9,442 bases of DNA from a virus. Taxonomy: Duplodnaviria; Heunggongvirae; Uroviricota; Caudoviricetes. Below the pieces are notes generated by a model. It made no database searches and was not told the DNA's origin. It saw only the letters and a program-made list of their open reading frames with translations. Positions 5,821 through 9,442 of the stretch are shown here, in pieces (positions within the stretch are counted from its first letter, which is position 1; the number at the start of each line of letters is the position of its first letter). The DNA lies in the IMG/VR virus record IMGVR_UViG_2548876961_000016, one strand, 5' to 3'. The position numbers and the translations under genes were made by a program.

Positions 5821-6081
5821 TTATTCTCCGATAGCGTGACCTGATAAGCCGTTAATCTTCTCTGATGTGCTCTCTATTTTGCTGGTGGAAATATTCAGTA
5901 ATTCAGAAATGGCAAAGGTTAATCTTGTCGTTGACTCGTCACGCTCGCAATTTGTCAGCGATTCAAACCAGACGTTAATAATCTCACTTACGGCATTGTT
6001 GTAAGATATTGCGCTTTGTGTGAGTTCATTCAATTCGCAAATTACGCGTTTGTTATTGTTCATAGCGTTTAAATCTCTCAT
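5821..6081 (-). CDS. Hypothetical small protein (about 80-86 aa; start at ATG 6081 or 6063)
   Basis: The ORF track starts at TTG 6084; in-frame ATGs follow at 6081 and 6063, neither with a strong RBS. Asn/Ser/Ile-rich. It overlaps the upstream ORF end and its stop sits in the RBS of the next gene. Confidence 0.4.
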   Translation of the reverse strand: MRDLNAMNNNKRVICELNELTQSAISYNNAVSEIINVWFESLTNCERDESTTRLTFAISELLNISTSKIESTSEKINGLSGHAIGE

Positions 6082-6244
6082 CAATTAACCACAGCGCAAC
6101 ACTTCCAGAAAGTTTTGCCAGAAGGCCAGCTAATGCGGATATATCACCATCATTTAATTTATTAGGGTACACCTCAAGAAGTCGGCAAATAATTTCTGTC
6201 TGGTGCGCACGTTCAGCGGCTTCGTGTAATGTAATTTCCTTCAT
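6053..6244 (-). CDS. Hypothetical small protein (63 aa)
   Basis: ATG start overlapping the upstream stop (TAATG), in a same-strand run of tightly packed small ORFs. Sequence MKEITLHEAAERAHQTEIICRLLEVYPNKLNDGDISALAGLLAKLSGSVALWLIDERFKRYEQ has no family I recognise. Confidence 0.45.
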   Translation of the reverse strand: MKEITLHEAAERAHQTEIICRLLEVYPNKLNDGDISALAGLLAKLSGSVALWLIDERFKRYEQ

Positions 6245-6474
6245 TAATGCCCCCCCCCTTTTAATTCATGTACTGCTGCAATAATTACATGTGATAAACC
6301 TGCTTTACCGGAATTACTGATTACTGAATCAATCGCCGCTTGCATATTAACGGCCTTCACGTTCTGCGTGATGCCAACGGTATAGCCGCGCTTGTTAACA
6401 GCACGGGAAAAAACGCGGAAGGTTTTAAGCACGGCACACCCCCTGACGAATACGGGCGACAAATACAGCAACAC
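6244..6474 (-). CDS. Hypothetical small protein; start uncertain (GTG at 6474 or ATG at 6345 giving 33 aa)
   Basis: ORF ends ...HELKGGGH, with GGG GGG GGG encoded by a 9-nt G tract. Its stop overlaps the next gene start (TAATG). The ATG at 6345 has an AAGG 9 nt upstream. Weak support overall. Confidence 0.25.
   Translation of the reverse strand: MLLYLSPVFVRGCAVLKTFRVFSRAVNKRGYTVGITQNVKAVNMQAAIDSVISNSGKAGLSHVIIAAVHELKGGGH
6250..6258. repeat. Homopolymeric tract C9 (G9 on the coding strand) at the junction of two small leftward ORFs
   Basis: Encodes GGG at the end of ORF 6244..6474, immediately before the overlapping stop/start TAATG. Confidence 0.8.
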
Positions 6475-6705: not shown

Positions 6706-6797
6706 GGTGCATCGCACCATCTGTTTTTAACCTATCAGCAAGTGAATCGCACTTCAAGCCTTTTCTCTGAATTTTTTTTGTGTATACTGAATCGCAC
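6706..6797. promoter_or_regulatory. Divergent control region with three copies of a (T/G)GAATCGCAC-type motif and a -10-like TATACT
   Basis: GGTGCatcGCACC (about 6706-6718), GTGAATCGCAC (about 6742-6752) and TGAATCGCAC (about 6788-6797). TATACT at 6783-6788 lies about 30 nt upstream of the 6819 ATG. The region sits between the leftward operon and the plus-strand small gene. Confidence 0.4.
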
Positions 6798-6818
6798 CAA
6801 CTTAGAGAGGATTCAGTA

Positions 6819-6998
6819 ATGGCAACAGGTTCAACAAATAATAAGTCGCAACAGTTAAATGCCAGATTCCCGCATGATGTTGTTGCAGACTTAGAAAAAA
6901 ATTTAGATGAAGGTGAAAGCAAAGCGCAATTTATAGTTACTGCCGTTAAAGGCGAAATCAAACGCCGCCAGCGCCGCAAGGCCAAAGAGCAGGAATAG
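6819..6998 (+). CDS. Small putative DNA-binding protein (ribbon-helix-helix-like), candidate regulator
   Basis: 59-aa ORF from the internal ATG at 6819 (MATGSTNNKSQQLNARFPHDVVADLEKNLDEGESKAQFIVTAVKGEIKRRQRRKAKEQE), preceded by GAGAGG 8 nt upstream. The GTG at 6780 in the ORF track has no RBS. The strand/helix/helix pattern and basic tail are RHH-like by eye only. Only plus-strand gene in the window. Confidence 0.5.
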   Translation: MATGSTNNKSQQLNARFPHDVVADLEKNLDEGESKAQFIVTAVKGEIKRRQRRKAKEQE

Positions 6999-7132: not shown

Positions 7133-7357
7133 CTACGCTGCCTTACCTGAATTAATACGATCCCGGCTTTTAACCCATTCCATAACCTCGGAAAGCAGCC
7201 AACCTACTGAACGACCACCCAGATTACGGCGTGACGGGAAATTCCCTTTTTTCTCCAGTTCGTAGCGTGTAGTGCGGCACACTCCTGTTAACTTACGGCA
7301 TTCATCCTCACGGATTACGCGATCTGATAGTGATTGAAATTGTGTATTTTGATTCAT
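7133..7357 (-). CDS. alpA: AlpA-family (Phage_AlpA / Vis-like) HTH transcriptional regulator
   Basis: 74-aa ORF. Core RVIREDECRKLTGVCRTTRYELEKKGNFPSRRNLGGRSVGWLLSEVMEWV matches the AlpA-family pattern (l..ev...tGlsrst.y.l...g.FP.p..lg.r.vgW...ev..W). Its position downstream of the integrase matches CP4-57-like elements. Confidence 0.85.
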   Translation of the reverse strand: MNQNTQFQSLSDRVIREDECRKLTGVCRTTRYELEKKGNFPSRRNLGGRSVGWLLSEVMEWVKSRDRINSGKAA

Positions 7358-7392
7358 AAAAAAACGTCCTCGAACGTTGCCGAACGAGGACG
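7358..7392 (-). terminator. Terminator-like or attenuator hairpin directly abutting the alpA start codon
   Basis: Minus-strand RNA reads CGUCCUCG, a 12-nt loop, CGAGGACG, then U7, then AUG of alpA. The 8-bp GC-rich stem plus U7 looks like an intrinsic terminator for readthrough from int and the 257-aa gene, but the only Shine-Dalgarno-like sequence for alpA (GAGGA) lies inside the 3' stem arm. Confidence 0.45.
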
Positions 7393-7419
7393 ATTCTAGG
7401 CGGTAGTAAAACGCCGTTT

Positions 7420-7453
7420 GTGTGATATCACACTACCAGCACGTGATATCACT
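7420..7453. promoter_or_regulatory. Pair of palindromic operator-like sites (GTGTGATATCACAC and GTGATATCAC) about 21 bp centre to centre, upstream of alpA
   Basis: Perfect 14-bp palindrome at about 7420-7433 and perfect 10-bp palindrome at about 7443-7452, sharing the core GTGATATCAC. Two-helical-turn spacing is typical of cooperative dimer binding. The second site overlaps the stop codon of the 257-aa gene. Confidence 0.5.
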
Positions 7454-8222
7454 TTTTACGTTTTTGTTGAGATTCACGCCCCAAATACTTTTGCCATGTC
7501 TGCCAATGTGTTTTTGGAAATTCTATCCCTCTGGATGCAGCTATAGAATCAATTAAATCTGCTATTTTAGGTAATGATTCCGTGTCCAGGTCTACATCAC
7601 CCATTTCTGGAATAAGTTTAATTAAAGAGTAAATAACCTCATTCCTTTTTGACGATGCTTTTGGGCTATCTTCTGTTATCTTCGGGAAGTCTCCCGTATT
7701 TTTTATATTATCTAAATCACTAGCCATCACACACAAATAGTTAACATCAAATTCATAACCACCCTTACAAAAAACATACATGAGATTATCATCACCATAC
7801 TTATTCGTAAGATGAGAACATTTTATATATTGTCTCATGCTAAATTCGACATCAGCAAAAACATATGCCGGAGTATAATAAAACCCTGATAAGCTGCTAA
7901 CATAATAACATTTGATAGAATTCCCTACAGGACCAATAATGGCACTATCTAAAAATTCAGTGTCACCAGTTAAACCAACTGTAAAATTACTTCCAAAAAC
8001 AGCAGATTCATCATTGAAAGGATATTTTATTAATTCTTCCTCATTACAACCATTGATAAAATGACATAATGAAAAATTGAATTTTTTAGCATCAATTTTT
8101 GGTATATATACAGAAATATTAAGAGCACCTATATATGCGTAATGATAAAGATCTTTTATTGCACAGCCTAACTTTTCTGCCGCTTCAGGTAACGGATAAT
8201 AGAGTCTTTTAGGTAATTTCAT
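7449..8222 (-). CDS. Hypothetical protein, AT-rich cargo gene in the int-alpA slot; N-terminal HTH-like segment, remainder unrecognised
   Basis: 257-aa ORF whose start overlaps the integrase stop by ATGA. Residues 5-35 (LYYPLPEAAEKLGCAIKDLYHYAYIGAL) resemble an excisionase/MerR-like helix-turn-helix; the rest is Tyr/Phe/Asn-rich with no motif I recognise. G+C looks much lower (roughly one third, by eye) than flanking genes (about half). Followed by a hairpin plus U-tract (7358-7392). Confidence 0.65.
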   Translation of the reverse strand: MKLPKRLYYPLPEAAEKLGCAIKDLYHYAYIGALNISVYIPKIDAKKFNFSLCHFINGCNEEELIKYPFNDESAVFGSNFTVGLTGDTEFLDSAIIGPVGNSIKCYYVSSLSGFYYTPAYVFADVEFSMRQYIKCSHLTNKYGDDNLMYVFCKGGYEFDVNYLCVMASDLDNIKNTGDFPKITEDSPKASSKRNEVIYSLIKLIPEMGDVDLDTESLPKIADLIDSIAASRGIEFPKTHWQTWQKYLGRESQQKRKK

Positions 8223-9442
8223 TTGGCCACCTTCAGCATAACAATATTTTCATGATTTCCAGCCAGCACATCGAGGCGCTCAACCCATAGATTAAGAGCG
8301 TCACGTTTTGCATCAAGATAACGGGAGTGATTATAGACTCGTTGCATTCCTGGCAACTGGTGCGCGGTAAGCTGCTCCACAACATGCGGTTCCACGCCTA
8401 AATCGTTCAGCATCGTTGTAAACGTGTGCCGGATGTCGTGCAACGTCCAGGGGGCTTGATTAATGCGTCTGTGTGCCGTTCTTCCGTACTCTGATACGGA
8501 TGATTGCCCTTTCAGTTCTCCGAGCAATAAGCCCGTGTGCCTGTTCTGCTCCACCAGCTTCATGACAAACGGCAAGATCGCTTCCGGTATTGGCCTGAAT
8601 ATTGCTACCTTCGTTTTGCTGTGTTCTTTCGGCACGGTCCAGAGCATTTCTTTAAAATCCCATTCCTGGACCTCAGAGCGTCTTAGCTCAGTGGTACGAC
8701 ATCCGAAGACAATCAGGAGGCGAATCAGGGCGCTGTAGTACGGTGGGTAAATTTTTTCATCAAGGGCGCGTAGTAATTCCCCAAGCTCCTTGTTTGTTAG
8801 TACGCGCTCGCTTATTTCTGCTTTTTTCCCAACATCACCGACAACCATATCATCAAGAACGTTGCTGATTGCGTATCGTCGTTTTCGGCAGTACTTAAGC
8901 GCCTGTTTGCATACCTGTAGCAAAAATCCGGCTGATACCGGATTACGCTTAGCAAGCTGGTCAAAACAGGCCAGCCAGTGGCGTAGCTCGCATTTTTCCA
9001 GTGGCATAGCTCCAATCTGGCTAATTATGTGTTTATTGATCCGGCTTTTCAGTGATTCGTAGTCAGTGCGCTTTTCCTTTGCGTACGATTCAAGCCAGTA
9101 AGTGAGCGCTTCCTTAACCGTCACGGGGGCTAACGCGTCCTGTACAGCATGATTAAGTTCATAGCGCGGATTTTTCCCCTCAGCCAGCCATGCGCGACAT
9201 TGCGACGCTTTTTCCCTGGCTGCTTTCAGGCTCAAATCTGGATAATTTCCCAGCCTCAGACGTTCAGGTGATATCTGCCTACCAGTTCCGGACCTGTAAG
9301 TGAAATACCAGGTTAACAGGCCATTGGTTGAATGCCTTACGCTAAGGTTGCCACCATCATTAAAAAAGGTGCTTTTTGTGGTTGGTGATCCGCTTAATTT
9401 TCGTAAAAGAGTGTCGCTAAGTCTATGAATTGCCCTGCTCAT
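8219..9442 (-). CDS. int: Tyrosine site-specific integrase (P4/CP4-57-type phage integrase family)
   Basis: 407-aa ORF. C-terminal catalytic region has the His-x-x-Arg box (LHDIRHTFTTML) and a tyrosine-containing tail (RVYNHSRYLDAKRDALNLW); an upstream Arg box is present (FGCRTTELRRSEV). The ATG is on the last bases of the window, so promoter, att site and any longer N-terminus are not visible. The stop overlaps the next gene start (ATGA). Confidence 0.9.
   Translation of the reverse strand: MSRAIHRLSDTLLRKLSGSPTTKSTFFNDGGNLSVRHSTNGLLTWYFTYRSGTGRQISPERLRLGNYPDLSLKAAREKASQCRAWLAEGKNPRYELNHAVQDALAPVTVKEALTYWLESYAKEKRTDYESLKSRINKHIISQIGAMPLEKCELRHWLACFDQLAKRNPVSAGFLLQVCKQALKYCRKRRYAISNVLDDMVVGDVGKKAEISERVLTNKELGELLRALDEKIYPPYYSALIRLLIVFGCRTTELRRSEVQEWDFKEMLWTVPKEHSKTKVAIFRPIPEAILPFVMKLVEQNRHTGLLLGELKGQSSVSEYGRTAHRRINQAPWTLHDIRHTFTTMLNDLGVEPHVVEQLTAHQLPGMQRVYNHSRYLDAKRDALNLWVERLDVLAGNHENIVMLKVAK

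Follow-up and report, generated by a model that had tools for sequence, protein, structure and literature searches.

The window, by which we mean the entire 9,442-nt stretch of DNA analysed here, comes from Shiga-toxigenic E. coli and represents a phage satellite, an island of the PICI / cf-PICI type. According to Pfam and PHROG matches, the main genes of the island all lie on the minus strand. They begin with a tyrosine integrase of 407 aa (int; 8219-9442; Pfam Phage_integrase and Arm-DNA-bind_3), followed by a 257-aa reading frame that we call ORF257 (7449-8222) and by alpA (7133-7357; PF05930), the gene for the helper-induced master activator of Gram-negative PICIs (PMC6092414). Further along are a D5-type primase (D5_N/DUF5906; 5519-3771), TerS (Terminase_2; 2688-2065) and an HK97-type capsid protein of 307 aa (Phage_capsid; 1902-979), with small ORFs and DUF4222 among them. 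A unidirectional series of int, alpA and D5-type primase, then TerS and capsid, with no tail or lysis genes in the window, identifies a Gram-negative PICI or cf-PICI; the far end of the island lies only partly inside the window. Identical copies of the island are present in O157:H7, O145:H28, O103:H2 and O121 chromosomes, and in O145:H28 strain RM12581 the island sits between yljB/cspD and clpS. The int-ORF257-alpA module also occurs, with 100% identity over 2,343 nt, on a second island backbone (L001, O145:H28 RM12581), which indicates that the front and late modules recombine independently. The late part comprises TerS and the 307-aa capsid protein in the window, and, in RM12581, a fusion of ClpP protease with capsid, an ssb pseudogene and additional small ORFs. 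Matches to at least part of the window are found in 5,425 of 5,426 E. coli genomes, and the alignments of some island variants begin only at position 314; the left end (1-330) probably holds the island/chromosome junction (att). The window contains no tRNA gene and no RNA family known to Rfam.

The preliminary description had placed ORF257 between int and alpA and proposed that it is coupled to the integrase, and the sequence bears this out: the ATG of ORF257 overlaps the TGA of int as ATGA, and alpA is next in order. The low G+C content that had been suspected by eye is also real, with values of 32.3% overall and 21.3% at third codon positions against 47.4% for the rest of the window, and the gene is the lowest-GC 774-nt stretch of the entire sequence. 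The suggestion that this composition marks a separate or recent acquisition has to be given up. Low GC is typical of the whole family to which ORF257 belongs: over 26 loci, in hosts ranging from Providencia to Klebsiella, the family gene averages 36%, int 49% and alpA 52%. Low GC is found in all 26 of these loci, and the interval left in islands that lack the gene is also at 34%. Base composition is thus uninformative on recent acquisition into this particular island.

Having been introduced as an orphan, ORF257 proves to have a sizeable family. A word-indexed search retrieved 19 clusters from E. coli, Salmonella, Klebsiella and Providencia, all labelled 'hypothetical', and an HMM search with the alignment of these clusters extended the set to 393 representatives at 50% identity. 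For 54 of these the E-value was below 1e-30, and the named members are from Klebsiella, Citrobacter, Trabulsiella, Providencia, Serratia and Enterobacter. This is an unannotated family of Enterobacterales islands. Among 5,426 complete E. coli genomes, DNA similarity places the present allele in 47 and some detectable allele in 84. Searches of Pfam, NCBIfam, PHROGs and PADLOC with ORF257 and 20-69 diverse members returned nothing beyond a weak helix-turn-helix (HTH) signal. ORF257 has no match to the HTH_17 model of Pfam, which is hit by one of 69 family members at an E-value of 0.0026, below the cut-off. No match was obtained when ORF257 was compared by tblastn with 50,697 GenBank phage records.

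The surroundings of the family gene are strikingly constant. In 26 distinct loci from E. coli, Salmonella, Klebsiella, Providencia and metagenomes, in which protein identity falls as low as 26%, an integrase gene always precedes it and alpA follows in all but one (L023). These loci include a Klebsiella site beside a TetR/RND locus, rcnB in Salmonella and E. coli, Providencia and other E. coli sites, and 20 IMG/VR contigs. When 69 diverse members were aligned, the result proved too divergent for use as a seed in the locus search, and a scan of genome contigs with a single integrase protein yielded two loci only. The 4-bp overlap with int is present in 15 of the 17 loci where the end of the integrase gene directly meets the family gene. 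The two genes overlap in every locus whose protein matches the middle-domain model and whose contig includes the integrase end, the exception being the truncated copy in L039, which stands apart from its integrase. In the four most divergent loci (L020-L023) the two genes are separated by about 100-330 nt and do not overlap.

The cassette is nevertheless optional. Many E. coli islands without the family gene occupy the same cspD/yljB site and encode integrases 91-94% identical to that of the window and AlpA proteins 95-96% identical in the core; in place of the gene they have a 420-bp unannotated, AT-rich gap with no relic of it. In blastn comparisons with three such islands (L024, L025 and L026), homology to the window stops at 8240 and restarts at 7325, which delimits the exchangeable unit as 7326-8239, a segment that comprises the C-terminal codons of the integrase, ORF257, the palindromes and hairpin described below, and the first ~10 codons of alpA. 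ORF257 is thus dispensable. The content of the int-alpA interval does therefore vary among related islands, being either the family gene or the 420-bp gap, but when the gene is present its synteny is rigid. It thus resembles a core component in its conserved position and is likely to have a regulatory role, yet it is optional.

Our picture of the protein is based on the family alignment and two AlphaFold models, one of the full-length chain (pLDDT 78) and one of residues 46-257 built on a deeper alignment (pLDDT 83). Three modules can be distinguished, all encoded on the minus strand. The N-domain (residues 1-45; 8088-8222) is the most conserved of them and is predicted to form a beta-alpha-alpha-beta winged helix, the fold of the Xis/RDF/AlpA/MerR superfamily, despite scoring below the thresholds of both PF05930 and HTH_17. 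The middle domain (residues 46-178; 7689-8087) is beta-rich and hypervariable; only G112, F113, E125 and L162 are invariant in a 19-sequence alignment. A disordered linker leads to the C-domain (residues 184-257; 7452-7673), four helices modelled at a pLDDT of about 94 that carry a TWxKYLGR motif and a basic tail. Profile searches against PDB sequences with alignments of the C-domain and of the middle plus C-domains gave no match, and the middle and C-domains have no fold neighbour, although both are confidently modelled. The preliminary description had seen an HTH-like N-terminus and no recognisable motif in the remainder, and both observations stand.

The middle domain is exchanged through recombination. 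When the window is compared with L011, nucleotide identity is 91-98% over the N-domain, drops to 30-48% over the middle, and returns to 90-100% from about residue 185 through alpA; in the comparison with L005, conservation is limited to the C-domain and the alpA part. Moreover, 32 of 163 proteins keep the N- and C-domains around an unrecognisable middle. Such mosaicism indicates that the middle domain is an exchangeable cassette between conserved ends, and we propose that it serves as a sensor or specificity domain. The 131-aa copy in L039 (1851-2246) is truncated at its N-terminus and retains the end of the middle domain and the C-domain, along with both palindromes and the hairpin; it may be an allele in decay or else a natural short form.

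Hypervariability and recombination of a central domain are also typical of proteins engaged in arms races, and they add to the case for the proposal in the preliminary description that ORF257 is anti-phage or accessory cargo. On such a reading, ORF257 would confer immunity as a single gene, its variable middle would sense a component of the invading phage, and its position beside int would merely reflect a cargo hotspot. Accessory genes of PICIs are reported to lie between integrase and regulator (PMC10085698), the family gene is present in some islands and absent from others, its GC content is low and the family is absent from genuine phages. The slot also resembles the psu-int hotspot of P4 and the accessory slots of PICIs in being a variable, int-adjacent interval with presence/absence variation and low GC (PMC9122126, PMC10085698). 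Those hotspots, however, hold many unrelated systems, whereas here a single family is found in a fixed register across genera. The polymorphism of the int-alpA interval therefore upholds the idea of a slot but not that of a freely exchanged mixture of cargo. No effector, enzymatic or membrane module was found in the family, few residues are invariant, and the single PADLOC match of ORF257, to mad1 (E 0.015), is confined to its HTH segment (residues 8-34) and is not significant. Cargo status would also leave unexplained the co-inherited sites and the hairpin, which are aimed at alpA and point to its regulation. We thus consider an immunity function unlikely as the explanation for the gene, while recognizing that it is compatible with a regulatory one since by firing alpA a sensor would interfere with the phage as well. 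[quoted passage not shown] The occupant of the slot in a characterised PICI, EcCIMP1_002, is likewise a different and much smaller protein.

The sites in question are two copies of the 10-bp palindrome GTGATATCAC, one at 7443-7452, overlapping the stop codon of ORF257, and the other at 7422-7431, 21 bp away. With one mismatch allowed, these are the only copies in the window, where 0.23 are expected. A palindrome pair accompanies the family gene in all 19 loci whose product has a C-domain of the TWxKYLGR type, mostly at positions -3 and +18 relative to the stop codon (the first copy is at -3 in 16 of the 19), with the second copy degenerate in three loci (L002, L012 and L015). A looser pattern, G[TC]GANNTC[AG]C, has just seven stray matches besides the pairs in 210 kb; none falls in the int-alpA interval of islands lacking the family gene, and few occur elsewhere in the locus. 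The geometry is well preserved: the copies are 21 bp apart in 14 of 18 loci, and in 14 of 18 the second copy is 62 nt away from the alpA ATG. Eleven of the 20 palindrome positions are invariant, and the spacer between the copies is not conserved.

The type of site found after the stop codon follows the type of C-terminus. Proteins with a C-terminus of the TWxKYLGR type are followed by two GTGAnnTCAC sites and those with KTIDKWLRGVDLDKK (the KTIDKWLR type) by two copies of TGGAATATTCCA, the related tail in L023 is followed by an inverted repeat with a related GGAAT half-site, and no site follows a ...DVELDYV... C-terminus. Site type follows neither AlpA nor the N-domain. Loci without sites are interspersed among the others when AlpA proteins are clustered, and because near-identical AlpA proteins occur in islands that lack the sites, we rejected AlpA as the palindrome binder; the comparison of loci likewise lends no support to the N-domain as the determinant of site type. 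The correspondence with the C-domain could also be produced by linkage alone, since its coding region adjoins the sites. Four loci with a '...WL.DVELDYV...' C-terminus (L017, L018, L019 and L044) have no palindrome pair anywhere in the locus and keep the hairpin, and in them only about 50 nt separate the stop codon of the family gene from alpA.

These observations bear on the possibility that the non-coding features have nothing to do with the protein, in which case the palindromes would form an RNA stem or a site for a host or helper factor, the hairpin would be a terminator of the int operon only, and ORF257 would have some other role. RNAfold does pair the two palindromes with each other, and the features are physically linked to the gene. 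Tests of complementarity within and between copies are nearly tied: the dyad symmetry within copies is reached by 6 of 500 shuffles and the stem between copies by 257 of 500, which favours the dyad weakly. An RNA stem is disfavoured mainly because the palindromes keep their sequence, in contrast to the true hairpin of these loci, which drifts through compensatory changes. In addition, the symmetric variants GTGAATTCAC and GCGATATCGC each remain dyad-symmetric in themselves and are no longer complementary to the partner copy. Together with the change of site type along with C-terminal type, this leads us to regard unrelated non-coding features as improbable and to favour the palindromes as DNA sites for the protein encoded beside them.

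The second conserved element is the hairpin itself, which lies on the minus strand at 7358-7392 (stem-loop 7365-7392) and consists of the arms CGTCCTCG and CGAGGACG around a 12-nt loop, followed by T7 and ending at the alpA ATG. Across the loci, its 3' arm always contains the Shine-Dalgarno sequence of alpA, which in the window is GAGGA. The z-score of the fold is -4.7, and the stem forms in all 20 loci with the family gene (mean -14.4 kcal/mol for 53 nt); it is absent from five islands without the gene (mean -5.8). Covariation across 17 loci supports the structure: 88.6% of cells pair, compared with 37-50% in slid controls, seven of ten pairs have changed on both sides, and the 20 compensatory cells were reached by none of 500 shuffles. 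In the window, an 8-bp stem with six G-C pairs followed by T7 has the form of an intrinsic terminator, and a generic terminator scan overlooked it because the 12-nt loop exceeds the limit of 8 set for the scan. A clear T-run is present in about half of the related loci and absent from some (for example L013 and L014), so sequestration of the ribosome-binding site is the more general property of the element.

Directly abutting the hairpin is a -10-like hexamer, TAGAAT (7393-7398, minus strand), without a match to a -35 element. A hexamer with A2 and T6 is found 22-23 nt after the second palindrome in 11 of 18 loci. If TAGAAT were to act as a promoter, the palindromes would be centred near -40.5 and -61.5.

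Within the hairpin loop is a further motif, CGAAC-N5-CGAAC (7371-7385), which has three matches in the window against 0.01 expected; at the far island end (204-228) it forms a triple repeat. The same box occurs 40-170 nt outside the int start in L005, L011, L019 and L024-L026; in L024-L026, cspD-site islands that lack the family gene, it also lies some 138-145 nt upstream of alpA. It is present with and without ORF257 and so is not specific to the cassette. We suspect that it is probably an arm-type site for the integrase or a box for AlpA/RDF, common to the att arms and the alpA control region. When the loop of the window (7373-7384) is compared with those of L002, L014 and L030-L045, it is seen to be flipped, reading GTTCG..GTTCG in the window, L005 and L011 and CGAAC..CGAAC in all other loci, with the arms unchanged; a short segment between inverted repeats appears to have been inverted.

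The distribution of this box is one of several points that bear on whether ORF257 might instead assist the integrase, as a directionality or fidelity factor or as an inhibitor of excision acting through its N-domain. Such a role would fit the ATGA coupling to int, which is conserved across most of the family, and the N-domain, which resembles Xis/RDF proteins and is the most conserved module. Yet the repeats shared by the two ends of the island are the CGAAC motif and not the palindromes, and the conserved sites adjoin alpA, about 2 kb from the att end. The integrases of widespread islands without the gene are, as noted, nearly the same, and AlpA-family proteins already supply an RDF-like function (PMC6092414, PMC10111431). 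We therefore think a role in integration or excision distinctly unlikely, and return to alpA as the probable target.

The palindromes and the hairpin are inherited with the gene and keep a fixed geometry ahead of alpA, which points to regulation of alpA. The best-supported reading of the comparisons is that ORF257 would be a regulator of the satellite lifecycle built on an undescribed protein family. More specifically, we put the probability that it acts as a DNA-binding sensor-regulator of alpA at roughly one half. Rather than random immunity cargo, the gene seems to encode the protein half of a self-contained alpA control cassette, composed of the three-module protein, two 10-bp palindromes and a terminator-like hairpin, which some Enterobacterales satellites carry as an optional element. 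The protein would be made together with the integrase by way of the ATGA overlap, and the hairpin would stop or silence read-through from the int-ORF257 transcript, so that alpA would not be made from that transcript. ORF257 may bind the palindromes, which are two helical turns apart, as a pair of dimers, probably through its C-domain, with the conserved ends of the protein handling contacts with DNA and partners. A weak, -10-only promoter would lie just downstream of the palindromes, and because its transcript would start inside the 5' arm, it would escape the hairpin. The variable middle domain would take the signal, most plausibly a helper-phage protein, and the signal would set the level of alpA expression and hence induction of the island; activation and repression by ORF257 are both compatible with this scheme.

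As of 2018, it was called 'unclear' whether Gram-negative PICIs have a repressor, and their inducer had not been identified (PMC6092414; see also PMC11773190), and the integration zone of these elements has been listed as 'integrase and AlpA' only (PMC10111431). Our literature search found no paper later than PMC6092414 that settles the question of the alpA inducer or repressor or describes the ORF257 protein. An attractive but tentative extension of the regulatory model is that the ORF257 family is the missing helper-phage sensor of one lineage of Gram-negative PICIs and functions as a one-component alpA switch. The middle domain would bind a helper-phage protein, upon which ORF257, by way of the paired operators at about -40 and -61, would turn on alpA, which would otherwise be insulated by the hairpin that sequesters its ribosome-binding site. 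The alleles of the middle domain would then define which phages induce which islands.

In function, the closest counterparts to such a protein are the Stl/Rpr regulators of Gram-positive PICIs (SaPIs). Like ORF257, these are satellite-encoded proteins of about 250 aa with an N-terminal HTH and a highly divergent remainder, their genes are co-directional with int, and they couple induction of the island to a helper-phage protein, as we propose for ORF257 (PMC6092414). No homology between ORF257 and Stl was detected in sequence or fold. The HTH of ORF257 is of the excisionase/MerR type, unlike that of Stl; ORF257 and its presumed target alpA point the same way, but stl and str diverge; the putative sites are found at the 3' end of the gene; the regulated gene encodes an activator; and the cassette is optional. 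The N-domain is structurally akin to AlpA, Vis, Xis and other RDFs (relatives of HTH_17 and PF05930), but ORF257 is about four times longer than these proteins, has two extra domains, and is associated with palindromes, whereas RDFs typically bind direct repeats. Should the helper-sensor model be correct, the family would be a Gram-negative counterpart of Stl assembled from unrelated domains, two of them without a known fold.

The family thus offers a concrete handle in the form of a protein, candidate DNA sites, an RNA element and a natural allelic series of middle domains. Its carriers include the STEC lineages O157:H7, O145:H28, O103:H2 and O121, in which satellites affect the traffic of phages and virulence genes, and should specificity reside in the middle domain, the induction of a given satellite by a given helper phage would be predictable from the middle-domain allele. 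Even if the regulator model is wrong, it is worth recording that ~400 clusters are absent from every annotation library, that two modelled domains lack a fold neighbour and that an RNA hairpin supported by covariation precedes a master regulator.

Beyond alpA, several further features of the region deserve mention. A YlcI/YnfO-like ORF (phrog_949; 6780-6998) lies between alpA and the primase on the plus strand, opposite to the main genes, and is accompanied in this interval by several small ORFs with PHROG matches only (phrog_5796 and phrog_1478; 5821-6474, minus strand); the same interval of related islands contains annotated Icd-like cell-division inhibitors. The window has no additional gene directly after alpA of the kind that fills a second variable slot in L005-L007, L041 and L044, where Phage_pRha, T5orf172/MUG113, AntA or ORF6N (Bro-N network) is found immediately downstream of alpA, depending on the island.
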